Program-made: the position numbers and the translations under genes | The notes under the pieces: generated by a model | The model's input: the letters and a program-made list of their open reading frames with translations, nothing else | Told to the model about the DNA's origin: nothing | The model's database searches: none | Part shown: positions 44,848-64,000 of the stretch, one piece after another | How the letters are laid out: each line of letters begins with the position of its first letter | Numbering within the stretch: the first letter of the stretch is position 1 | Assembly (NCBI GenBank): GCA_036744855.1 | Contig: DAIOHF010000014.1 | Coordinates: 45,287-109,286, forward strand | Direction: 5' to 3' | Source of the DNA: Sedimentisphaerales bacterium | GTDB lineage: Bacteria; Planctomycetota; Phycisphaerae; Sedimentisphaerales; Anaerobacaceae | Length of the DNA stretch: 64,000 bases

Positions 44848-45303
44848 GTGGCTGAGAAACGAAAGAAAACATCCAAGAAGAACGTCGCAGCGGAGCAGAA
44901 TCCGAAATCGCCCCTCAGCGCAAAGGAAATTGCAGCGTTCAAGACGTTGCTCCTGCAAAGACGTCGCGAGATCCATAGGAACGTCCACGAGATCGAGGGC
45001 GAAACGCTCCGAAAATCGAGGCTGGACGCCAGCGGTGATTTGTCGAGCATGCCGATCCACATGGCGGATCTGGGAACCGACAACTTCCAGCAGGAATTCT
45101 CTCTGGGATTGATGGACAGCGAACGACAAATCATCACCGAGATCGACGACGCCTTGCACCGCATCGAGGCCGGAACGTATGGAATCTGCGAAGGCACAGG
45201 CAAGCCGATCGCCAAAGCCAGGCTCGAAGCGCAGCCCTGGGCCCGGTATTCCGTGGAGTACGCCCGAATGATGGAACAGGGGCACATCCGGCAGATGGAC
45301 TAG
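44848..45303 (+). CDS. DksA/TraR-family regulator lacking the C4 zinc finger
   Basis: Coiled-coil region plus C-terminal GTYGICEGTGKPIAKARLEAQPWARYSVEY. This aligns to CxxC-17-CxxC, but only one Cys is retained. Confidence 0.7.
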   Translation: MAEKRKKTSKKNVAAEQNPKSPLSAKEIAAFKTLLLQRRREIHRNVHEIEGETLRKSRLDASGDLSSMPIHMADLGTDNFQQEFSLGLMDSERQIITEIDDALHRIEAGTYGICEGTGKPIAKARLEAQPWARYSVEYARMMEQGHIRQMD

Positions 45304-52131: not shown

Positions 52132-52996
52132 GGACGATCTCGAAAATGCCCCTGCAATCCTGCACCAACCCCTCCAGCCAATCCAGCGGCAACATGGTCG
52201 CAGCGTCGGAGAGCCCCTTCTCGGGCTCCGGATGAACCTCGAGGAACAGGCCGTTGACGCCCGCCGCGACCGCGGCCCTGGCCAATAGAGGCGCCATTTC
52301 CCGCTTGCCCCCGCTGGCGGAACCCAGCCCGCCGGGCTGCTGCGTGCTGTGCGTGGCGTCGAACACCACCGGGCACCCGAACCCCTGCATGATCGGGATG
52401 CCGGTCATGTCGTTGACCAGGCGGTTGTACCCGAAGAAGGTCCCCCGCTCGGTGAGAATCACCTTGTCGTTCTTGCAGGACCGGATCTTGTCGGCGACGT
52501 TGCCCATCTCGCCGGGGGAAACGAACTGCCCTTTCTTGACGCTGATCGGTTTTCCGGTCTCGGCGCAGGCGACGAGCAGATCGGTCTGGCGGCACAGGAA
52601 CGCCGGGATCTGGAGGCAATCGACGGTCGCGCCCGCCTCGGCCGCCTGGGCGGGTTCGTGAATATCCGTCATGACCGGCAACCCGGTCTCGGCTCGCACC
52701 CTGGCCAGGATCTTCATGCCCTCGGTCAGACCCGGTCCGCGAAAGCTCGAATAGCTGCTGCGGTTAGCCTTGTCGAAGCTGGCCTTGAAGATCATCGGAA
52801 CGCCCGTCCGCTCGGAGACCTGAACCAGCCGCCTGGCGATTTCGAGACACAGCTTCTCGCTCTCGATCACGCACGGCCCGGCCATCACGAACAGCGGAGC
52901 GTCGAGTCCCGCCACCACGTTGCCGATCTGGAAACTGGTCCCTGTCGTCACTCCTGCCCCTTCTTCGTCAAACTTCCGATCACAGATAGATCTCAC
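52124..52996 (-). CDS. kdsA: 3-deoxy-8-phosphooctulonate (KDO-8-P) synthase
   Basis: AGPCVIES, FKASFDKANRSS, TDIHE, LQIPAFLCRQTDL and VFDATHS motifs. The true start may be an internal GTG. Confidence 0.9.
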   Translation of the reverse strand: MRSICDRKFDEEGAGVTTGTSFQIGNVVAGLDAPLFVMAGPCVIESEKLCLEIARRLVQVSERTGVPMIFKASFDKANRSSYSSFRGPGLTEGMKILARVRAETGLPVMTDIHEPAQAAEAGATVDCLQIPAFLCRQTDLLVACAETGKPISVKKGQFVSPGEMGNVADKIRSCKNDKVILTERGTFFGYNRLVNDMTGIPIMQGFGCPVVFDATHSTQQPGGLGSASGGKREMAPLLARAAVAAGVNGLFLEVHPEPEKGLSDAATMLPLDWLEGLVQDCRGIFEIVHG

Positions 52997-53537
52997 GTTC
53001 CTTGATCGCCAATTGGGTCAGCCGCTCGCCGATCATGCAGGCGTAACTGGCCATGATGTGTTGCGAGCCCGACAGACCCAACGACGACTGCACCTCTGCT
53101 ATCGTGCCGGAGTCCGGCCCCTCGATCTCCACGAACACGCCGAGCAGCGGAAGCTCGTCGAGCGCCACTTCGCAGCCCTGCAACTGCCACAGACGTCGCC
53201 TCTTGTTGAACGCCAGAGCCTTGACGTACCCCAGCATCGCCAGGAGTTGCTCCATCGTCTCGGCGTCGCTCACCTCGGTCTCGAGTTCGACGCGCCGCTT
53301 ATAGTCGTCCTGCTCCTTCGGGCCCTTGTACGCCAGGATGAACCGCTCCCGGCCGCCTTTGCTGTCGGACCGCAGACGCAGCGCCTTGTCGGTTCGCGTC
53401 AGGTCCCGGCCGACGGTGTCGTAGTAGCGGTCCGTCTGGATCGTCTCGCGAAGAAACGTCGCCCCGCAACGGACGAGGCTCTGCTCGACCGCCTCCAGCG
53501 AATCCACCTTCAGCTTGGCTTCAATCTCAGAACGCAT
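52980..53537 (-). CDS. CYTH-domain protein (class IV adenylate cyclase / triphosphate tunnel metalloenzyme)
   Basis: MRSEIEAKLKV N-terminal ExExK motif. About 185 aa, with a TDRYYD...LRLR...YKGP...R.E.E pattern. Confidence 0.8.
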   Translation of the reverse strand: MRSEIEAKLKVDSLEAVEQSLVRCGATFLRETIQTDRYYDTVGRDLTRTDKALRLRSDSKGGRERFILAYKGPKEQDDYKRRVELETEVSDAETMEQLLAMLGYVKALAFNKRRRLWQLQGCEVALDELPLLGVFVEIEGPDSGTIAEVQSSLGLSGSQHIMASYACMIGERLTQLAIKEREIYL

Positions 53538-53543
53538 GAATCG

Positions 53544-56198
53544 TCACACCACGATGTTCACCAATCGGCCTTTGACCACGAGCACCTTCTTGGGCGTCTT
53601 GCCTCCCAAAGCGAAGACCACCTTCTCGCTGGCCAGCGCAACCGCCTTGACCGACTCGTCGTCCGCCTCGGCAGCCACGACGATGCGGTCCTTCACCTTG
53701 CCGTTGACCTGGACCGCCAGTTCGAGCTGCTTCTCGCGGGCCAGCTCTTCGTCATACTGCGGCCACGGCTCGTACGCCAGGCTGCGATCGTGTCCGAGAC
53801 GCGACCACAACTCCTCGGCCACGTGCGGCGCGAACGGCGCCAGAATCAGGATGAAAGACTCGACCACCGACTTGGGCCGGACTTCCTGGCGAGCCAGGTG
53901 GTTCACGAAGATCATCATCGCACTGATGGCGGTATTGAACCCGAACGTCTCGACGTCGCCGCCGACCTTGCGAATCGTCTGGTGCAGCAGCCGCAGCGTC
54001 TCTTCATCGGCCTGGGCCTCGCGGACCGCCGAGTCGAGTTCGTTCGTCTCCTCATTGACCACCATTCGCCAGGTCTTCTGGAGGAACCGGTACACGCCTT
54101 GGACGCCCTGCATGCTCCAGGGCTTCATCGCCTCCAGCGGGCCCATGAACATCTCGTACAGACGCATCGAGTCGCCGCCGAACTCAGCGATCACGTGGTC
54201 GGGGTTCACCACGTTGCCGCGGGACTTGCTCATCTTCTGGCCGTCCTCGCCGAGGATCATGCCCTGGTTGATCAGCCGCGTGAACGGCTCGGCTGTGCTG
54301 ACGTAACCTCGATCGAACAGAAACTTGTGCCAGAAGCGAGAGTAGAGCAGGTGCAGCACCGCGTGCTCGGCGCCGCCGATGTAGAGATCGACCGCCATCC
54401 AGTACCGTTCCTTGGCCGGGTCCCAGCCCTGCTGCGGATTCTTCGGGTCGATGTATCGCAGGTAGTACCAGCAACTTCCGGCCCATTGGGGCATCGTGTT
54501 GGTCTCCCGCCGGGCCGGCCCGCCGCAGCGGGGACATGTGGCGTTGAGCCAGTCGGTCGCTTTGGCCAAAGGCGGCTCGCCCGTCACCGGAGGCGTGTAG
54601 TCCGTCACCTCAGGCAACGTCAGCGGCAGCGCCGATTCTGGAAGCGGCACGACGCCGCACTTCTCGCAGTGAACGACCGGGATGGGCTCGCCCCAATACC
54701 GCTGCCGGCTGAACAACCAGTCCCGCAGTTTGAAGTTGATCGCCTTGCAGCCCAGCCCGTTCTCCGCAAGCCACGCCGTGATCTTGGTCTTGGCCTCGGC
54801 GGTCGGCAGCCCGGTGATGGAGACCTCCGGCCCAGTGGAGTTCACTGAGGTCCCATCGTCCACGAAGCCCTTCCAATCCGTCTTCGAGTCCGGCGGCTGA
54901 ACCACCTGGATCACAGGAAGGCAGAACTTCTGGGCAAACTCATAGTCGCGAGTGTCATGTGCAGGCACCGCCATGATCGCGCCGGTGCCGTAGGTGGCCA
55001 GCACGTAATCCGCGATCCAAATCGGGATCTTCTCCCGATTGACCGGATTGACCGCATAGTTGCCGGTGAAGACACCGGTCTTCTCTTTGTCGAGCGAGGT
55101 GCGCTCCAGTTCGCTCTTGCGGGCGGCCTCCGTGCGATAGGCCTGGATCGCCTCCCGTTGCTGGGCTGTCGTGATATTCTCGACCAGCGGATGCTCGGGC
55201 GACAGCACCATGTACGTGGCGCCGAAGAGCGTGTCGGGTCGGGTGGTGAACACGCGGAGCTTCTGCCCGGCCGCAGGGCCTTCAGCGATTTCGAAGTCCA
55301 CCTCCGCGCCTTCACTGCGGCCGATCCAGTTGCGCTGCATCTCTTTGATCGACTCAGACCATGTGACGAGCTTGAGGTCTTCGAGCAATCGGTCGGCGTA
55401 GGCTGTGATCCGAAGCAGCCACTGACGCATCGGCTTGCGCACCACGTTCTGATGCCCCTTGCGGTCGCACTTGCCGTCTTTCACCTCCTCGTTGGCCAGC
55501 ACCGCCTTGCAGCCTTCGCACCACCAGACAGGGACCCAGTTCTCGTAGGCCAGCCGCAGATCCGAAACGGTCTTGCGAAGGAACGCCTCCCTCTTGTGAG
55601 GATCGCCGCCTGCGGCCTGCGCCGCCTTGTGCCACGACGTCAGGAACGCGCTGGACTCCCATTCGGACCTGCGCCGGGGCTTCTGGGCCAGCGCATCTTC
55701 AAGCAGCGAGATGTCGGCCGCCTTGCCCCACGAGGGATCGTAGTAGCTGTTGAACAGCTTCAGGAAGATCCACTGGGTCCATTTGAAGTAGGCGGGGTCG
55801 GTGGTGTCCACCTCGCGGTCCCAGTCGTACGAGAAACCCAACATCTTGATCTGGCGGCGGAACGTGTTGATGTTCTTTCCCGTCGTGACCGACGGATGCG
55901 TGCCTGTGTCGATGGCGTACTGCTCGGCAGGCAGGCCGAAGGCGTCCCAGCCCATCGGGTGCAGGACGTTGAACCCCTTCATCCGCTTGTATCGCGCGAC
56001 GATGTCGCTGGCGGTGTAGCCCTCGGGATGCCCTACGTGCAGACCCTGGCCGCTCGGATAGGGGAACATGTCGAGAACATAGTACTTCGGCCGGGAGGCG
56101 TCGCAATCCCCGGCCCGGAAGGTCTTGTTCTCTTCCCAGTGCTTCTGCCACTTCGGCTCGATCGAACCGAAATCGTACGTGCCCTGCTTTTCGCTCAT
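53544..56198 (-). CDS. leuS: Leucine--tRNA ligase
   Basis: [18 protein letters not shown] (HIGH) and KMSKSRGN (KMSKS) motifs. 884 aa with typical LeuRS blocks. Confidence 0.95.
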
Positions 56199-56415
56199 CG
56201 CTGTAGGAAACCTCTTTCAAAACCCGCCGCACCGCGTCCATTTGCGAAACGGCCTGCGATCCCGTGGCCGGTTCGCCGGACCATCCGGGGCCATCCCATC
56301 CACGTTCGCCGAACCCGCTCAACAGCAGGGGTCCGCGACTGTACAAAGACCGTTACTATACTCGATCTACCGCCGCCGGTGTAGGGAAAGTTCACACCCT
56401 CGTCCAGGAAATGCC

Positions 56416-56458
56416 GATGGCGGCGTCGGGACCGAAACCGGGTCCTGACGCCGCCATC
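56416..56458 (-). terminator. Long GC hairpin after the LTD-protein gene (terminator-like, no clear U-tract)
   Basis: GATGGCGGCGTC / GACGCCGCCATC 12-bp perfect arms with an inner GGACC/GGTCC extension. Lies 32 nt downstream of the stop codon at 56490. Confidence 0.3.
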
Positions 56459-56489
56459 GCGGTATCTGATCGATTCGAGCGGGTCGCTG

Positions 56490-57545
56490 TCAGAGCGAGA
56501 AACCGAAGAAATCCACCATCGCCGAGGCCAAGGGGCTGCTGATGATCGTGAAGGCTGCGTCGCTCACGTCGAACACGCTCGGACGGGTCGTGCTCGACAC
56601 GCGGACAAGCGCCTTGGGGGCGTCCACGAGGGGAACGAGCCACTTGTAGCTGCCGGTGTTGCCGGTGTTTCGCGGGAAGACCTCGTTCCAGGAGTGGCCG
56701 TTGTCCAGAGAGAACTCCACGCAGACGGGCTCGCTCACGCTCGTGCTCTCCCACTTGATGTCCACGATGTCGCCCATGGCGAGGGCTTCGCCGCCGTTGG
56801 GCGCGAGCACCTTCAAAGAGGCGCCGGTGGCGGGCGTAACGACCTCGCGCAGCTTGCCGAGGCCCTGGCTTCCCCACCGGTTCGGCGAGCCGAACGTGCT
56901 GAAGTCGGCGCCGTCGTCATACTTGGTGGAATTCGCGGTGATGGTGGCGTCGGGATCGGCCTCCAGGCGGAAGATCTCGGTCCCGCTGACGCCGCTGGCC
57001 GGGCTGATGCCTTCGCCCGCCGGACCGAAGACGACCTGGCCGGCCTTGTCGCGAATTCGCAGTTGCCAGTTGTTCGAGCTGACCGGGAAATTCGACTTCT
57101 CGATGTACAGGCCGTCGCCGTTGTTGTTGGCCTGGACGTTGATCCACCAGTCGCCGGCGGCGGGATTGTAGCTGATGTCGCTGGGCACGTCCTCGGAGAT
57201 CGTGATGATCGTGCCGGCCCGAAGGTCCTGCCAGATCGGATGGGCGGTCAGGACGAGCGTCTCGTCGAGGATCTTGTTCTCGTAGATGTCGAGCTGCCAG
57301 CCGCGGATGTCCAGATGGTCCTTGATGACGACCAGTTCGAACCAGTCGCCGCCGTTGCCGCGGACTCGGCCGAAGTAGCTGTCGGAGGCACGGCCGCCGT
57401 CCTCGTCCGCCGAGGCGGTGCCGCCGCCGAGGAATTCGTTCGCGTCGACCGCGTTATACTCGTTGAGAATGATGTCCGCCGCCCACCCGTTCATCGACAA
57501 CAGGGTCAGCACGATAAGGATGCTCGTGATCCTTCTGATGTTCAT
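56490..57545 (-). CDS. Secreted lamin-tail-domain (LTD) protein
   Basis: Signal peptide. ILNEYNAV...GGDWFELVV LTD signature. C-terminal Ig-like module (KVLAPNGGE...DIKWEST...SYKWLVP). Confidence 0.65.
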   Translation of the reverse strand: MNIRRITSILIVLTLLSMNGWAADIILNEYNAVDANEFLGGGTASADEDGGRASDSYFGRVRGNGGDWFELVVIKDHLDIRGWQLDIYENKILDETLVLTAHPIWQDLRAGTIITISEDVPSDISYNPAAGDWWINVQANNNGDGLYIEKSNFPVSSNNWQLRIRDKAGQVVFGPAGEGISPASGVSGTEIFRLEADPDATITANSTKYDDGADFSTFGSPNRWGSQGLGKLREVVTPATGASLKVLAPNGGEALAMGDIVDIKWESTSVSEPVCVEFSLDNGHSWNEVFPRNTGNTGSYKWLVPLVDAPKALVRVSSTTRPSVFDVSDAAFTIISSPLASAMVDFFGFSL

Positions 57546-57638
57546 GGTCCACCCTTTCCTTCTCTAGAATCAAGAAACCAACGGGCCGTGTCCGCCGGAT
57601 CACGGCCATCCGTGTATCCACAATCATTATACCGCCTG

Positions 57639-59276
57639 CTACCTCCCGGGCCGCATCGTTTCTTCCGTCGAGGGCTTCCGAGCCAGCGGAATCGACGCGG
57701 CGCCGATCTCCCACATCCCGTCCGGGCGAACCTGCATCACATCCGTATCCCGGTAGAAATTCACCGTGGCGATCGCATAATCGGTCAGAGCGTCGGCCAG
57801 TTCGTTCTTCGCGTCGTGCAGATGCTGAAGGCCGTCGAGCACGCGCCGACTGCTGACTCGCCCATACTCCAGCAACAGGTAGTTCTTTTCGATGCGCTCC
57901 TGAGCCAGCTTCAGACCTTTGGTCAGGATCAGATAGCGTTCGGCGGTCTCCAGCAGCTTTCGATGGGCCTCGCGGACTTCCAGGCGGACGGTGTCCGCCA
58001 TCTGGTCATAATCCCGCTGACGCTGATTCAGAAGAATCAGGGCGTTGCGATAGGCGACCTGCTCCGGAACGCGGTCCAGAGGCAGATCCAGGACGGGTCC
58101 GGCGGTCACGGCCCCCTGGCCTCGCGAACTGACGTCCACGCTGCCGGCCACCGCCAGTCCGGTCCTCAAGGCGTCCGCCGCGACGTAGACTCCGCGTTGC
58201 GCGTCCAGGACTCTGTCGGCCTGATTGATCAGGTCCAGTCGCCGGGACAACCCGGTCTCAACCGCCTCGCTGACCGCGAAATCGGGCTGGGGGATGCCTC
58301 CGTTCTTGAGGGCTTCGAAAACGCCCTGGTCCAGCTCGAACTCGCTGGTTGGCGGCACGCCAAGCGTGATCTTGAACGCGTCGAGGAATCGATCATGTTC
58401 CCTCTGGGCCAGGACCCACCGGTCGCGTGCCCGAAGCAGTTCCTGCTTGATGCGATCAAGTTCCTCGGATTCCAGCCTCGCGGCGTTGACGAGCTTTTCG
58501 ACGCGGTCGTGCAGCGCCAGCAGGGAGTTGTAGTACTCCTCGGTGTTGGAGGCCAGAGTCCCCTGCTCCAGCACTTCGTAGTATTGCGTGATCACCGACA
58601 CGACGAACGTCTTGCGGAACCGGTTGAAGGACCGGATCTGATACAGCGTGTCGCGTTTGGCCTGGGTCAGAGGCTCCAGGACGACCATCCGGTCGCTGCC
58701 TCGCAGCAATGGCTGGGCCACCGTCGCACCGAACACCGACGCAAAGCCATGATTGCCCTGCCCGAGCAGGACATCGACCCATTGAATGCCGACTCGGGTG
58801 CTGATCAGAGCGCCTGAGGCCAGGAGGCGGTTGAAGCCGACATTGGCCTCCGCCTGCACCGCTTCGTCGGTACCGTCGTTGGAATACAGAAGGCTGCCTC
58901 CGCCGAACAGTTGCGTCTCGTAGCCATGACGCACGAGTCGTTGATTGAGAGCGGTCGTGTAGAGCAACTCCTTTTGGGTCTGGTACTCGCGATTGGCGGC
59001 CGTGGCGATGGCGACGGCGCGGGGCAGCGTCAGCACGCCGGGAATGGGCGCGTATCGATCAACCGCAAGATCGTTCGGGGACGAAGAGACATCGCTGACC
59101 CGGTAGTTGGCCTTGGAGCCGAAGGACGGGTCCCACTGGGCGTCGATAACGTCGTAGGCTTGTTTGTCCGCGTCGAGTTTGTAGTTGCGCTGCGGACAAC
59201 CGGCCGCCAGAGCCGCCAGAGCCAGAGACATCGCCAGCAGTGCAGTACGAACCATCGCGTTCATCACCCCAACCAT
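57639..59276 (-). CDS. TolC-family outer-membrane channel (OEP) lipoprotein
   Basis: LALAALAAGC lipobox. Two repeated halves rich in heptad-like helices (LLEYGRVSSRRVLDGLQHLHDAKNELADALTDYAIATVNFYRDTD). The start follows the HlyD stop codon by 11 nt. Confidence 0.7.
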   Translation of the reverse strand: MVGVMNAMVRTALLAMSLALAALAAGCPQRNYKLDADKQAYDVIDAQWDPSFGSKANYRVSDVSSSPNDLAVDRYAPIPGVLTLPRAVAIATAANREYQTQKELLYTTALNQRLVRHGYETQLFGGGSLLYSNDGTDEAVQAEANVGFNRLLASGALISTRVGIQWVDVLLGQGNHGFASVFGATVAQPLLRGSDRMVVLEPLTQAKRDTLYQIRSFNRFRKTFVVSVITQYYEVLEQGTLASNTEEYYNSLLALHDRVEKLVNAARLESEELDRIKQELLRARDRWVLAQREHDRFLDAFKITLGVPPTSEFELDQGVFEALKNGGIPQPDFAVSEAVETGLSRRLDLINQADRVLDAQRGVYVAADALRTGLAVAGSVDVSSRGQGAVTAGPVLDLPLDRVPEQVAYRNALILLNQRQRDYDQMADTVRLEVREAHRKLLETAERYLILTKGLKLAQERIEKNYLLLEYGRVSSRRVLDGLQHLHDAKNELADALTDYAIATVNFYRDTDVMQVRPDGMWEIGAASIPLARKPSTEETMRPGR

Positions 59277-59287
59277 GAATGGACCGG

Positions 59288-60526
59288 TCACAGCCCCCGA
59301 ATGCCGACGAGTTCGCCCGGAATGATGGCCAATCCCGCCGGAACCTCGATCACCACCGGCCTGCCCCACTGGGGGGCGGTCGGACTTCGCCAGAGCCGCT
59401 GCGGCATCAACTCGACCGTCGGCCCGATGGACAGGACGCGGGACTGCGCGATCTGGGCCGGATACCTCATCTTCACCAGCTCGACGTTCATATCCTCTTC
59501 CAGGAATCCGACCTGCTGTTCGCTGGCGTAGGCGATGATCTCGGTCGGCTCGGTCTGCGCCACGGCGAGAATGGGATCGCCCGCCGCGACGACTTCCCCC
59601 GCCCGTCGGATCGTCTCTTCGCCCTGTCGCTTGAGCAGCGTTTCGTTGGCTTTGCCGGAGATCGGGATGACGACGCCGTCGATCGGCGACTTCAGCTCGA
59701 CCGCTGTGCGGGTCTTGAAGGCGACGATCTGCCCCTGGAGACCTTTGATCAGCTCCTCCTGGACCCTCGCTTCTTTGCGGATGGCCTCCAGCGCGTCGTC
59801 GACGGACGTCCTCGGCAATTCCTGGCGGGCGAATTCGTCGCGCCTGCGTTCGGCTTCCGCTTGATCCGCCTGGGCCTGCTTGAGCGTTTCCTGATACTCG
59901 CGGATCTTCTTGGCGGCGCTCTCGTGGTCGATTCGGATCTTCTCCAGCTCGAACGACACGACGACTTTTTCCTGCACCAGTTTCTCGGTGCTCTGGAGTT
60001 GAATGGCCAGACTGTTCAGCAGGATCTCCGCATCGGCGATCTCCGTCTGCACCTTCAGCACATTGAGTCGGGCCGCCTCGACGTCCACAGCGAACCGTCT
60101 CTGGTTGTCCGCATGGCTGATCTGAAGATTCGCGGCGTTGGCCAGCAGTTCCTCCTGCGTGGGGATGAGCAAGGCCATCAGCCGCTCGATCTCCGCCGCA
60201 GCGGTGGCGATCTGGCTCTTGAGTTCCACTTCGGTCATCCACTCGTTGGCCGGAACGGTGTTGAGGATGGCGAGCGTCTGTCCGGCCTTGACGGGCTGGA
60301 ACAGCTCCACCGGAATGTCGGCAATGCGCGCGACGCAGTCCGACGCCACCTGTCGAACCTCGCTCTGCGCGATCCCGACCATCTGGAAAGTCTCCGAGCG
60401 CTGATAGAACAGCCATCCCACGACCGCCACCGCGCCCAGCCAAACGGTCATCGGCGCCACGTGACGCAGATAGGAGCGCTTGACCACGTAATCCTTCTTG
60501 GCTTGCTTCTCTTTCATCATGGCCAT
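59288..60526 (-). CDS. HlyD-family membrane-fusion (periplasmic adaptor) protein
   Basis: N-terminal TM anchor. Lipoyl-like VKAGQTLAIL. About 150-aa coiled-coil hairpin. Beta-barrel C-terminal half (IDGVVIPI...). Confidence 0.75.
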   Translation of the reverse strand: MAMMKEKQAKKDYVVKRSYLRHVAPMTVWLGAVAVVGWLFYQRSETFQMVGIAQSEVRQVASDCVARIADIPVELFQPVKAGQTLAILNTVPANEWMTEVELKSQIATAAAEIERLMALLIPTQEELLANAANLQISHADNQRRFAVDVEAARLNVLKVQTEIADAEILLNSLAIQLQSTEKLVQEKVVVSFELEKIRIDHESAAKKIREYQETLKQAQADQAEAERRRDEFARQELPRTSVDDALEAIRKEARVQEELIKGLQGQIVAFKTRTAVELKSPIDGVVIPISGKANETLLKRQGEETIRRAGEVVAAGDPILAVAQTEPTEIIAYASEQQVGFLEEDMNVELVKMRYPAQIAQSRVLSIGPTVELMPQRLWRSPTAPQWGRPVVIEVPAGLAIIPGELVGIRGL

Positions 60527-60531
60527 ATCGC

Positions 60532-61227
60532 TCAGACTTCGAGCAACTTCTCCTGCATCGTCAGATTGATGCTCTCCATCCCATCGACTTTCTCCAGCTC
60601 CGCGATGAACTCCTCATTCATGGCTGTGTTCCTGACCATGATCTGATAGGCATATTCGGCCGGCCCGCCGAACCCGCTGTCCTGCGCGGAGATCAGCGTG
60701 AAGTTCCCGCAGAACCGACGCAGGATGCCCGGCACCGGATGGTCGGTCCCGATCGGACCCCGCAGGCTGAACCGCAGGAATCCATTGTGCGGCTCATGGG
60801 AGCCGAAGTCCGTGAAATGCAGATAGATCGCAATCGCGCCGAGGATCACCGTGCCCAGGATCGCCGTCATGTAGCGATGCGAGCCGCACGCCATCCCGAT
60901 CACCAGCGACGAGAAAATGAACACGATGTCCCGCGTGTCCTTGAGCACGTTGCGGAACCGAACGATCGCCAGGGCGCCCATCAGCCCGACCGCGGTGATG
61001 ATGTTGTTGCCGATCACGGTCATCACCATCGCTATGACCACGGTGATCAGGATCAGGGACTGTACGTAGGAGCGGGAATAGGACAGCCCGCTGTGCGTCA
61101 TGTAGTACACCCAGGCAACGACCTGTCCGAGCACGAACGCCAGCAGCAGCGCCAACAGCACGTCCTGCGGGCCGAACGACGCGCCGCCCAGCGGCGTCTC
61201 CTCGATCAGTTGCCACCATCTATCCAT
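60532..61227 (-). CDS. DUF4956-family inner-membrane protein
   Basis: 4 TM segments with the conserved LMGALAIVRFRNVLKDTRDIVFIFSSLVIGMACG core, plus a soluble C-terminal domain. The start overlaps the VTC stop codon by 8 nt. Confidence 0.7.
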   Translation of the reverse strand: MDRWWQLIEETPLGGASFGPQDVLLALLLAFVLGQVVAWVYYMTHSGLSYSRSYVQSLILITVVIAMVMTVIGNNIITAVGLMGALAIVRFRNVLKDTRDIVFIFSSLVIGMACGSHRYMTAILGTVILGAIAIYLHFTDFGSHEPHNGFLRFSLRGPIGTDHPVPGILRRFCGNFTLISAQDSGFGGPAEYAYQIMVRNTAMNEEFIAELEKVDGMESINLTMQEKLLEV

Positions 61228-62155
61228 TCCACACGCTCCTCATGGCCGGACCGCAGAACCCCAGCCGGTTCGATTGCTCCATCGACGTAACGAATTTGGA
61301 GATCGAACGGGCCTCCAGATTGAACAGCCGCACCAGCCGGCTCAGCCATTCGGGGTACACGCCCGTGAACTTGATCTCCAAGATCGCATAGCCTGTCGTC
61401 AAATCGTTGTGTTGCCAGCCGGTGCCGCCCAGGCGAACGCAGGGTTCGCTGGTCACCTTGTAGTACAACTCCCGGTCGAACGTAATCCTCACGCGATTCT
61501 CCGACGTGCTCTCGAAGGCCTGCCTGAGGTATCGGATCAGGATCATCGGTCCGGCCTGGACCGACGCGACGTAGAGCTGAAACTGGCTCAACGCCTTCTC
61601 GTCGGTCGTATACCCCTGAGGCGGCAGCAATTTGCCCTGCAACAGGGTCGCGACGTCCTGATCCATGACCCGGGCCCGGCTCTTCAAGATCACGCGGTTG
61701 ATCCGGCGCTTGATCTCGAAGAACCGCGGATACTCCGGCTCGTCGGTATAACTTCGAATCCGCAGTTTGAACCGGTTCTTCTGGCCCTGCTGGCTCTCCC
61801 GGCACAACTGCAAATCCTGCGAATCCAGATACAAACTGACAATCGGGTAACTTCCCCCGCGTTGCAGCTTCGAATACTTGTCGTATTCCAGAAACGGACG
61901 AATGTAGCTGGTAATCCTGGCGGCCTCGATCTCCGTCACGAGGTATTTCATCTCGTAGCGACAGGCAAGCATGCCGTCGACGGAGATCTTTTTCACCGGC
62001 GCAGGACGCGGTTTCGGTCCGCCCTTCGGTTCCCCTCTCACCGCGACTGCCGGCACCGCCGGCGGCCTTAGAGGCACTGCCCCCTGCCGCACAGCGTTCG
62101 TCCGCGCGATAAGGTCCGATACGACCGGCCCTCTGTCAGTCCTGCTGCTGTCCAC
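61220..62155 (-). CDS. VTC-domain (polyphosphate polymerase / triphosphate-tunnel) protein
   Basis: RYEMKYLV tunnel-entry motif, YPIVSLYLDS, RFKLRIRSY, FFEIKRR and ILEIKF beta-strand motifs of bacterial VTC (PF09359-type) proteins. The alternative start is at 61972. Confidence 0.75.
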   Translation of the reverse strand: MDSSRTDRGPVVSDLIARTNAVRQGAVPLRPPAVPAVAVRGEPKGGPKPRPAPVKKISVDGMLACRYEMKYLVTEIEAARITSYIRPFLEYDKYSKLQRGGSYPIVSLYLDSQDLQLCRESQQGQKNRFKLRIRSYTDEPEYPRFFEIKRRINRVILKSRARVMDQDVATLLQGKLLPPQGYTTDEKALSQFQLYVASVQAGPMILIRYLRQAFESTSENRVRITFDRELYYKVTSEPCVRLGGTGWQHNDLTTGYAILEIKFTGVYPEWLSRLVRLFNLEARSISKFVTSMEQSNRLGFCGPAMRSVWNG

Positions 62156-62278
62156 CTTGCTTCATTTCCTTCTGCAAATCCCCAAGATGAGGCAATACCC
62201 CTCCTGAGGCAGGTGCTTCCGCAGACACCATTTTCCGCACTGGGGGCAGGGTCCTGCTGTAACCCAAATCCCTTGTCT

Positions 62279-62308
62279 ATTTTAACACAAACGCGGGTTC
62301 ACAGTCAA
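62279..62308 (-). promoter_or_regulatory. Sigma-70-like promoter for the VTC-DUF4956-HlyD-TolC operon
   Basis: Minus strand: TTGACT, 18-nt spacer, TAAAAT, in the spacer between CotH and VTC. An imperfect hairpin plus TTCTGTTT at 62333-62371 could terminate CotH. Confidence 0.5.
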
Positions 62309-62387
62309 GCAATCTGTTAGATCCGTGTTAGGCAAACAGAAGACGCGCGTCGTTCTGCGCAGAACCGCGTCACGACGCCGACGGCGC

Positions 62388-64000
62388 TCAGTTCCCCTCG
62401 ACCGCCAGCGGCCCGGCGTTCGCCCCAAGCGGCGTGGGGACCGACGACACCTGCATGACGCCGGTTCCGTCCGGATAACGGGCGCAGGACTGGTCGCCCG
62501 CGAGACGGCCGATCGTGACCGAATCCAGGAGAATATGCCCGTTCTCGATGGTGTCGAACAGCCAGATCGTCTCTCCCTGAGCTGAAAGCTTGAAGTTGGC
62601 GTGCAGGCCGGGCTCATCCTGGCCGTCCTCGTCCGCCCAGATCAGCAGGTACTGCCCCGGCTCCAGAACCCTCCCTTCGGGAAACCGCCACTTGAGCGGT
62701 TTGTCCGGACTGTCGCTCAGGTACATCCCAGCCAGGTTGATCGCCTGATCGCTGATGTTCTTCAGTTCAATCCAGTCGTCGTACTCGCCCTGGGGATCGG
62801 CGACCACAGCCACGTTCTTGCTCATGACCTCGTTGATGACGATTCCGGAATAGGCCGCGTGCGGATACGTCACAAGATGGCGGTATACATCGTGCTCGGC
62901 GCCCTCGGGGCTGTAGGCCACGGTGCCCGCGGAATCGGTCGCTGTCGCCTCGACGTAGTAGCGAAGCACCGTCCCGGCGGGGTAATCGCCCAACGCCAGG
63001 GAAAAGACGCGTTCCGACGCCCCCTCGGCAGTCTGCACGCCCTGATGGATCATGGACGTGGGCGCGAAGAGCGCAAACGGCCCCGGCGCGACGTACAACT
63101 GGACGCCTGAAACCGGAACCGCGGTGCCAAGCCGGGCGGTGACGAAGAGGCTCTGACCGGTCGGAGTCTCCGTGACTTCCTGCTCGACCGAATTGATGAC
63201 GGGGGACGCTCGATTGACCTCGCTATTGGCCAGCAGCGTCGTGCGACGGGTCTGGACGAAGTTCCTGAGGGTCGTGACGCCTGTCTGAAACGCCTGGGTG
63301 GTGTAGAGCTTCTTCGTGTCGGCCGCGACCTCCGCCTCGATCAAGGCGCGGTAGGCGTCGATCTTGGCGTTGAGCACGTCCGGCGTGAAGTGGCTGCTCA
63401 GGATCGTGCGGACATGGGCGAGATACCGCTGGCGGTACTTCGGAATCGACATGAGCCGATACATCACCGGCACCGACGAGTCGTCGGCCCGGTAGAAGAT
63501 GGACCAGTTGGCCGTGCTCATCGATTCGTTGCCGTCATACTGCATCAGGTGGATGCGTCCGGTCTCGGGTTCGTAGTAGAGGCCGTAGTCGCTGCCGCGT
63601 TTGTTGACGTAGCCGTCGTCGTCTTCGAAGATGATCTCGAAGGCGCACAGCCACAAGGCGCCGTCCACGTTGAGCACGGATTCGACGTTGTCGGGCAGTT
63701 GAGCCAGAGGCGTGTTGTTCAGGACGTCGCACGTATGAATCAGGCTCGCCCAGGGGTCCGCCTGGTGAGTGCTCTTGAGCTCGTAGGCCGACTGGTACGT
63801 CGCCACGTTGGCGCCCTGCCAGGTCAGAGCTGCAACGCCTGCGGTCACCCCGCCCTCGGCCACGCCGACGTCGCCGACGGATCGACGGATGGGCGTCACG
63901 CCGCCACCGCCCGGCGTGCCGCCACCCATGTTGCCTCCGCCTATGGCCCGCATGCCGTCGCCGCGCCATTGGGTGCCTTCGTTGCTCGGGAACCAGTCAT
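62388..64000 (-). CDS. CotH-family (atypical kinase fold) secreted protein with C-terminal lamin-tail domain; 5' end outside the window
   Basis: CotH core blocks (VNKRGSDYGLYYEPETGRIHLMQYDGNES, YRLMSIPKYRQRYLAH). C-terminal LTD (IVINEVMSKN...DDWIELKN...LSDS). The reading frame stays open to position 64000. Confidence 0.75.
   Translation of the reverse strand, partial: DWFPSNEGTQWRGDGMRAIGGGNMGGGTPGGGGVTPIRRSVGDVGVAEGGVTAGVAALTWQGANVATYQSAYELKSTHQADPWASLIHTCDVLNNTPLAQLPDNVESVLNVDGALWLCAFEIIFEDDDGYVNKRGSDYGLYYEPETGRIHLMQYDGNESMSTANWSIFYRADDSSVPVMYRLMSIPKYRQRYLAHVRTILSSHFTPDVLNAKIDAYRALIEAEVAADTKKLYTTQAFQTGVTTLRNFVQTRRTTLLANSEVNRASPVINSVEQEVTETPTGQSLFVTARLGTAVPVSGVQLYVAPGPFALFAPTSMIHQGVQTAEGASERVFSLALGDYPAGTVLRYYVEATATDSAGTVAYSPEGAEHDVYRHLVTYPHAAYSGIVINEVMSKNVAVVADPQGEYDDWIELKNISDQAINLAGMYLSDSPDKPLKWRFPEGRVLEPGQYLLIWADEDGQDEPGLHANFKLSAQGETIWLFDTIENGHILLDSVTIGRLAGDQSCARYPDGTGVMQVSSVPTPLGANAGPLAVEGN

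Follow-up and report, generated by a model that had tools for sequence, protein, structure and literature searches.

A minus-strand operon for a VTC-domain enzyme, DUF4956, a HlyD-like adaptor and a TolC-family lipoprotein: a candidate system for polymerase-coupled polyphosphate export in a Sedimentisphaerales bacterium

A stretch of 64,000 nucleotides (nt) from contig DAIOHF010000014.1 of a Sedimentisphaerales bacterium (positions 45,287 to 109,286; hereafter referred to as the window) carries an operon of four minus-strand genes encoding a VTC-domain protein, a DUF4956 membrane protein, a HlyD-like adaptor, and an OEP/TolC-family lipoprotein. It is proposed that this operon encodes a system that spans the envelope and exports inorganic polyphosphate in a polymerase-coupled manner, a reading to which we assign a probability of roughly one half. 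The linkage of the VTC, DUF4956, and adaptor genes is not a matter of chance, as deduced from a survey of related loci. From the domain, conservation, and neighbourhood data described below, we infer the polymerase activity, the role of DUF4956 as a channel, polyphosphate as the cargo, and the role of the neighbouring CotH protein. No description of the VTC-DUF4956-adaptor-OEP module was found in the published literature.

All genes located between positions 56490 and 64000 are encoded on the minus strand. The gene for the VTC-domain protein (61220-62155; 311 amino acids (aa)) begins with a GTG codon, and the ATG of the DUF4956 gene (60532-61227; 231 aa) is situated 8 nt inside its end. The adaptor gene (59288-60526; 412 aa) follows after a gap of 5 nt, and the OEP/TolC-family gene (57639-59276; 545 aa) after a further 11 nt. 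The operon is regarded as translationally coupled. An earlier sequence-only reading of this DNA had described four tightly coupled genes, and the coordinates, the overlap, and both gaps match that description in full. Gene callers favour the ATG at position 60520 as the start of the adaptor, by which the gap between DUF4956 and the adaptor becomes 11 nt. The domains that had been named from the translations, namely VTC, DUF4956, HlyD (as HlyD_3), and OEP, as well as CotH and LTD in the protein encoded upstream, were all recovered by means of hidden Markov model searches.

The VTC-domain protein is predicted to be a cytoplasmic polyphosphate polymerase. It matched Pfam PF09359 with 134.4 bits (cut-off 23; E=6e-39) over profile positions 2-233 of 235, and features a pI of 9.8. 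VTC was the sole Pfam match, and neither an SPX domain nor the VTC-type three-helix membrane domain was detected within the 311 aa. A profile of 47 diverse bacterial VTC homologues identified the catalytic domain of yeast Vtc4 (3g3q) as the best solved relative (E=2.7e-25), the matches of the same profile to the inactive Vtc2/3 being weaker (E=1e-12 to 1e-13). Residues E68, K70, R132, R134, E147, K149, K158, Y209, R211, R223, E260, K262, and K287 were invariant in the 47 homologues and align with the Vtc4 motifs TKY, RLR, ERK, VKAR, YNR, RVR, LEVK, and SKF. When the tunnel residues of Vtc4, presumably K200, R264, R266, K281, K294, Y359, R361, R373, E426, and K458 in the numbering of Hothorn 2009, were mapped by alignment, their counterparts were found in K70, R132, R134, K149, K158, Y209, R211, R223, E260, and K287.

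Residues 1-65 of the VTC protein (61960-62155) form a Pro/Lys/Arg-rich N-terminal extension outside the VTC domain. The extension varies among the orthologous proteins (279-311 aa in total length), and the true start codon may be located further downstream. Unusually long VTC proteins (838-1400 aa; loci L032, L043, and L078 of the survey) were considered as possible VTC-CotH fusions; a VTC domain was found only at the C-terminus or not at all, and these reading frames, being over-extended in GC-rich DNA, do not represent such fusions.

The DUF4956 protein, proposed as the inner-membrane conduit and as the dock for the enzyme, matched PF16316 with 46.7 bits (cut-off 30.6; E=4e-12). It features four to five predicted transmembrane helices and, at the C-terminus, a beta-alpha-beta-beta-alpha-beta domain with structural matches to ACT folds. 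A threshold of E<=1e-3 gives 5450 cluster representatives for the family, and full-length matches measure 225-235 aa. Positions Y41, R90, D100, and G115 are invariant throughout the family, and the motif RFRxxxKDTRD is placed between two short helices. Among the proteins of the operon, DUF4956 evolves most slowly within the order, with identities of 77-89% as compared to 66-76% for VTC, 53-78% for the adaptor, and 53-61% for the OEP protein. The top 120 database clusters for DUF4956 were all at least 78% identical, whereas the orthologous adaptors drop to 53%.

For the adaptor, Pfam HlyD_3 was obtained with 31.6 bits (cut-off 22.2; E=3e-7). Its AlphaFold model (pLDDT 84) shows an N-terminal membrane helix (residues 11-44), a lipoyl domain, an alpha-hairpin (98-274) of about 88 residues per arm, and a beta-barrel (318-410), and lacks a membrane-proximal domain. 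A Foldseek search with this model returned EmrA (4tko; E=7e-16) as the top match, followed by EmrAB-TolC, MacA, and HlyD, and on the basis of the model the protein is assigned to the EmrA/HlyD type of adaptors, which touch their inner-membrane partner via the membrane helix. The NCBIfam adaptor subfamilies RND_mfp (35.4 vs. 94.9 bits), type_I_hlyD (22.2 vs. 208.65), and CzcB (20.6 vs. 319.3) remained far below their cut-offs. Conservation of the membrane helix equals that of the folded domains, W29 and L39 being kept at 92-95% across phyla, which fits a specific partner within the membrane. The OEP protein matched PF02321 in two stretches (61.4 bits; cut-off 22; E=1e-16) and carries the lipobox LAAGC, the cysteine of which is retained in all orthologues from Planctomycetota.

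DUF4956 loci were collected from species-representative genomes using an alignment of 14 DUF4956 sequences as the query, and their genes were determined by clustering of all open reading frames and by profile searches. The 80 loci taken are the best-scoring of at least 586, and counts run over 84 loci; taxon labels were taken from the deposited records, many of which are metagenome bins. In total, 82 out of the 84 loci contain a VTC gene, which is located directly upstream of DUF4956 in 65 of them. A HlyD-like adaptor gene stands immediately after DUF4956 in 40 loci and is found nearby in 43, the two genes being separated by a few nt or overlapping. The near homologues are labelled Sedimentisphaerales or Phycisphaerae (Planctomycetota) by their sources, and loci with orthologous adaptors, down to 53% identity, share the order VTC-DUF4956-adaptor-OEP-(351-aa protein), with CotH upstream in some of them and not in others. 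Adaptor-linked loci extend over at least seven double-membraned phyla (Planctomycetota, Fibrobacterota, Acidobacteriota, Verrucomicrobiota, Deltaproteobacteria, Delongbacteria, and Balneolales), and the adaptor was found in none of the 26 loci from single-membraned bacteria (Actinomycetota, Chloroflexota, and the candidate phyla radiation).

The adjacency of DUF4956 and the adaptor survives rearrangement of the gene order: Fibrobacter loci read DUF4956-adaptor-OEP-VTC-CotH, and one Desulfobacterium locus reads CotH-adaptor-OEP-VTC-DUF4956. Neighbour-joining analysis places the 41 DUF4956 proteins with a linked adaptor in a single clade of 42 leaves, the sole unlinked leaf being L043, where the adaptor was lost and is kept by the nearest relatives. 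In 23 loci, the adaptor gene is followed by one for an OEP protein. In several operons the adaptor gene is the last one, and the genes past it are unrelated and in convergent orientation. At L024:12027-14045 (Planctomycetales), a type I phosphodiesterase/nucleotide pyrophosphatase gene (PF01663) takes the place of the OEP gene. The sequence-only reading had called for a neighbourhood survey of VTC-DUF4956, and these counts indicate that its linkage to both the adaptor and the OEP gene is conserved.

A conventional pump appears to be lacking, as that reading had also stated. No ABC, RND, or MFS gene was detected within 10 kb on either side of the operon on the same contig; further ABC genes of the window are exclusively of the FecCD/periplasmic-binding importer type, and no exporter families were among the top matches for positions 1-50000. 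Since the operon could have lost a pump gene that follows in its relatives, the operons of 40 related loci were inspected, and no ABC, RND, MFS, or PET transporter was encountered, in close and distant relatives alike. Among 97 open reading frames flanking 26 adaptor-linked loci, no family recurred more than three times and no exporter was among the recurring ones, which were two-component regulators and VWA proteins. Nine loci have an ABC ATPase with a TOBE domain nearby; it was set aside as a chance neighbour, being of the importer type and lying on the opposite strand in adaptor-linked loci. The Fibrobacter loci L035, L039, L040, L045, and L046 harbour a canonical operon of OEP (637 aa), HlyD (332 aa), and ABC-2 permease genes at approximately 15.7-20.6 kb in the loci. 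It lies some 2 kb beyond the VTC/CotH genes on their downstream side and has an adaptor and an OEP of its own. The idea of trans-envelope export, as raised by the sequence-only reading, thus came through the computational checks in all three respects in which it was exposed: the domain assignments hold, the linkage is conserved, and no pump gene occurs in the operons of relatives.

As currently envisaged, the basic, Vtc4-like enzyme would build a polyphosphate chain in the cytoplasm from the gamma-phosphate of ATP. It would dock on a DUF4956 oligomer, the invariant basic/acidic RFRxxxKDTRD loop and the ACT-like domain of which would face the cytoplasm. The growing chain would then thread through DUF4956 across the inner membrane, driven by polymerisation and by the inside-negative membrane potential. 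Above DUF4956, the membrane-anchored, EmrA-like adaptor may form a sealed periplasmic tube that opens the TolC-family lipoprotein, by which the polymer would get out to the surface with no need for a conventional pump of the ABC, RND, or MFS kind. In the most speculative step, secreted CotH-family kinases and LTD proteins might act with or on the polymer, which could, e.g., donate phosphoryl groups at a site devoid of ATP.

Several observations weigh against this scheme. The published literature yielded no bacterial VTC-domain protein with demonstrated activity, and triphosphatases of the same superfamily share the tunnel residues. DUF4956 matches MgtC (PF02308) below the threshold (17.7 bits; cut-off 31.4), as do 31 out of 59 diverse members of the family (best E=1.6e-5, in the membrane region), so that DUF4956 is regarded as a distant relative of MgtC and not as a member; MgtC itself has been described as a regulator, not as a transporter. 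The AlphaFold model of DUF4956, based on 42 close homologues, reached a pLDDT of 56.5 and only about 50 in the membrane part, which makes this part unusable. Foldseek returned matches to the ACT-like tail only and none to the membrane part, and a DUF4956 profile gave nothing significant against PDB sequences. Deletion of homologous genes in Streptococcus intermedius caused no clear phenotype, and the authors of that work suggested that the polyphosphate is cytoplasmic. The adaptor and the OEP protein are mildly acidic instead of basic. A basic duct as conduit for a polyanion was considered and discarded, the median net charge of the duct proteins being -1.7 to -2.7 per 100 aa, similar to that of a control OEP linked to ABC2.

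The comparative data also set limits to the scheme. Approximately one third of the adaptor-linked operons with enough sequence lack an adjacent OEP gene, and VTC-DUF4956-CotH occurs without an adaptor in the double-membraned Myxococcota, Gemmatimonadota, and some Verrucomicrobiota, indicating that the outer-membrane duct is not universal. Moreover, the fractions given are not family-wide, since the 80 loci are those most closely related to this DUF4956. The adaptor-less architecture was encountered in L052, L054, L057, L060, L062, L068, L070, L075, L077, and L084 (Myxococcota, Gemmatimonadota, some Proteobacteria, Verrucomicrobiota, and one Phycisphaerae), where a CotH protein of about 900-1140 aa adjoins VTC-DUF4956. 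In both examples scanned, this large protein (about 940 aa) features a right-handed beta-helix.

Among the alternatives, the one that survives best, although it is considered unlikely, retains the same VTC/DUF4956/adaptor/OEP machine and assigns to it a cargo other than long-chain polyphosphate. The tunnel enzyme would make or hydrolyse a different phosphate compound, for instance a short oligophosphate or a nucleotide-derived product. In a variant, it would energise DUF4956, and the duct would export that product or else a counter-ion, for which a metal-phosphate complex is an example. This explanation draws on the same linkage evidence, and it is in line with the many chemistries of triphosphate-tunnel enzymes, the literature having yielded no assay of a bacterial VTC member, with the non-basic nature of adaptor and OEP, and with the ACT-like domain of DUF4956, which suggests control by a small ligand. 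It fits less well with the enzyme itself, the closest solved relative of which is the active polymerase Vtc4, inactive paralogues matching more weakly, and with the invariance of those residues that hold the growing chain in Vtc4.

Somewhat less credible is the explanation that DUF4956 acts as an MgtC-like regulator, that polyphosphate stays in the cytoplasm, and that the adaptor and OEP serve an unlinked pump and are merely co-regulated with VTC/DUF4956, e.g., under phosphate or metal stress. The sub-threshold similarity to MgtC, together with the shared architecture of a membrane part plus an ACT domain, and the view of the Streptococcus authors on cytoplasmic polyphosphate point in this direction, as does the canonical OEP-adaptor-ABC2 operon about 2 kb away in the Fibrobacter loci. 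In E. coli-type systems, adaptors and TolC can indeed be encoded apart from their partners. However, the adaptor directly follows DUF4956, often with overlapping genes, in 40 loci from at least seven phyla and even in rearranged gene orders, the DUF4956 proteins with a linked adaptor group in one clade, the neighbourhood lacks a recurring pump family, and the linkage is confined to double-membraned bacteria. Furthermore, the ABC2 system of Fibrobacter brings its own adaptor and OEP. Very improbable is type-I-like secretion of the CotH/LTD proteins by the adaptor and OEP, with VTC/DUF4956 giving energy or regulation: HlyD-type adaptors do serve type I protein secretion and secreted CotH/LTD neighbours are frequent, but CotH and the 351-aa protein carry cleavable Sec signal peptides and not C-terminal type I signals, no ABC ATPase is present within 10 kb or recurs in the flanks, CotH is missing beside several adaptor-linked operons, and single-membraned bacteria have the same CotH neighbours without an adaptor.

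A sigma-70-type promoter precedes the VTC gene on the minus strand (62308-62279; TTGACT, 18 nt, TG-n-TAAAAT; 10/12 matches plus the TG extension), at exactly the position given by the sequence-only reading. The block CTTGAC...TGTTAAAATAG does not vary among six orthologous loci in which the flanking sequence has diverged. Such a phylogenetic footprint indicates that the promoter is more than a match to the consensus. A terminator-like hairpin (62361-62344, minus strand), located 3' of the CotH gene, stands between the operon and this upstream gene. Two CTAAC direct repeats, exactly 11 bp apart (62310-62331, minus strand), abut the -35 hexamer and are conserved in four of the six orthologous loci (the window, L012, L014, and L007). 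The pair represents a candidate site for a response regulator of the OmpR/PhoB type, for which this spacing is typical. In most actinomycete loci, VTC-DUF4956-CotH has a pair of an OmpR-type regulator and a histidine kinase at its flank, as is also the case in some of the adaptor-linked loci. A comparison of positions 56000-64000, including the 5' leader, with Rfam matched no known RNA family.

The operon is flanked by genes for secreted proteins. The 3' part of the upstream CotH+LTD gene occupies positions 62388-64000 on the minus strand, its frame being open to base 64000. The full protein of 705 aa is encoded at L001 6723-8840 of the same contig and begins with the Sec signal peptide MTTKALVVLSVAAALWGVCAASGA. 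It matched CotH (PF08757) with 82.8 bits (cut-off 23.8; E=4e-23) and contains a C-terminal LTD domain (E=2.5e-17). Similarity to the CotH protein of B. cereus (5jd9) was found at E=4e-4; in this single pairwise alignment, a DG..HNY / WD region stands opposite DDDGYV..SDY / YD, with an insertion of four residues. Just past the end of the window (L001:6102-6632), upstream of CotH, a protein of 176 aa is encoded that begins with HYERAFENW and has no Pfam match. It resembles the 'HYExAFE' family, and it is kept beside hisS in L009.

Downstream of the OEP gene, a spacer of 93 nt with a terminator-like hairpin (57578-57598, minus strand) precedes the gene for a 351-aa protein (56490-57545, minus strand), which is acidic (pI 4.4) and carries the signal peptide MNIRRITSILIVLTLLSMNGWA. 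This gene follows the OEP gene in ten loci, all of them Sedimentisphaerales-like, and is specific to the order. An LTD domain had been ascribed to this protein as well. Neither Pfam at E<=10, nor BLASTP against the CotH-LTD protein, nor a four-round iterated LTD profile (66 domains) provided significant support, and hhalign gave P=0.007 with a probability of 5%, the agreement being confined to the motif level (order INE...DWxEL...GW) and to a weak LTD-like motif in the N-terminal region. The LTD label of the downstream protein is thus unproven, and of the two CotH/LTD flanks that had been described, the upstream one is confirmed by Pfam, albeit with a gene that runs off the end of the window. 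The statement that VTC, DUF4956, and CotH genes co-occur proved correct for VTC in nearly all loci (82/84) and for CotH in most of them (63/84). Beside adaptor-linked operons CotH is frequent and not obligatory, being missing at L005 and L009.

The contig surroundings of the operon consist of housekeeping genes (hisS, leuS, and kdsA). Positions 1-50000 of the window encode ordinary functions, among them a FecCD/ABC/periplasmic-binding importer, a sodium:solute symporter, a sulfatase, 3-keto-disaccharide hydrolases, Rho, and a class I tRNA synthetase. Two genes downstream, past leuS, a CYTH protein of 185 aa (52980-53537, minus strand) represents a second triphosphate-tunnel enzyme. Its position is syntenic in L007 and L009, which may reflect the plain conserved gene order of the order.

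Bacteria have been reported to expose or release polyphosphate, and we know of no route by which bacteria export it. The operon described here provides a concrete four-gene candidate for such a route that is open to expression and knockout experiments. If the proposal is true, a triphosphate-tunnel polymerase together with an MgtC-like membrane protein would join ABC, RND, and MFS transporters and glycosyltransferases among the known inner-membrane partners of adaptor/TolC ducts, and a function would be available for DUF4956, a family of about 5450 sequence clusters, and for the bacterial VTC-domain proteins. Members of the DUF4956/VTC families also adjoin the pel biofilm operons of streptococci and are located on a pathogenicity locus of Clostridium perfringens. 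Polyphosphate at the surface could be a source of phosphoryl groups for secreted CotH-type kinases outside the cell, and the bacterial pair may have a bearing on the origin of the eukaryotic VTC complex. Only tentatively, and with somewhat less confidence than in export as such, the operon may be regarded as the first dedicated bacterial machine for polyphosphate secretion, crossing both membranes in one step, with the polymer as phosphoryl donor or substrate of CotH and with VTC/DUF4956 as the counterpart, possibly the source, of eukaryotic VTC.

Compared with known systems, the closest relation of the enzyme is with the eukaryotic VTC complex (yeast Vtc4 with Vtc1/2/3/5). Both use the same catalytic domain family with retained tunnel residues, and both pair the catalytic domain with a small multi-helix membrane protein, here in 82 of the 84 loci. 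In yeast, the complex links synthesis with translocation and requires an electrochemical gradient, which is made by the V-ATPase (PMC10657179). The direction would be the same in the operon studied here, with the polymer leaving the cytosol for the positive side of an energised membrane. Differences concern the separate MgtC-like DUF4956 protein with its ACT-like tail, the lack of SPX, and the addition of an adaptor and a TolC-family channel spanning a second membrane. With the MgtC/SapB/YhiD family, DUF4956 shares the C-terminal ACT-like domain and a sub-threshold similarity in the membrane region, but it features its own RFRxxxKDTRD motif and is nearly always paired with VTC.

The trio itself has been met before in another setting. 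CotH, VTC-like polymerase, and DUF4956 genes were described as accessory genes beside Gram-positive pel operons, with CotH predicted to be secreted, VTC to be cytoplasmic, and DUF4956 to be a four-helix protein with an MgtC-related ACT domain (PMC7112168; bioRxiv 10.1101/2024.04.20.589940). The trio is also found on the Clostridium perfringens pathogenicity locus, and one study met it in pel operons only and none outside. The pel-associated trio resides in single-membraned hosts and lacks the adaptor and OEP, whereas the trio analysed here is independent of pel, extends over many phyla, and is joined by an outer-membrane route in one DUF4956 clade.

The adaptor and OEP protein, in turn, resemble EmrAB-TolC and HlyBD-TolC in adaptor architecture and fold (EmrA, MacA, and HlyD being the best matches) and in the OEP-family factor; unlike these systems, the operon lacks an MFS or ABC partner, as do the 40 related operons. 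Precedents in which a polymerase cooperates with an adaptor and TolC are known for cyanobacterial cellulose (Maeda 2018) and for the rhizobial mixed-linkage glucan made by BgsA/BgsB/TolC (PMC13438883). In such systems, as proposed here, an inner-membrane polymerising machine takes the place of a pump and is combined with a HlyD-type adaptor and a TolC-family channel. Theirs is an integral-membrane family-2 glycosyltransferase producing a neutral glucan, whereas the operon described here encodes no glycosyltransferase, and relies on a soluble tunnel enzyme and a separate membrane protein, the presumed product being an inorganic polyanion. By analogy, the operon would thus work like synthase-dependent tripartite secretion without being a member of the BgsA/BgsB/TolC type, and its cargo is probably an inorganic polymer. 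The trio known from pel operons and the polymerase-adaptor-TolC precedents, taken together, would place the operon with the tripartite, polymerase-coupled type of export, equipped with a new inner-membrane pair.

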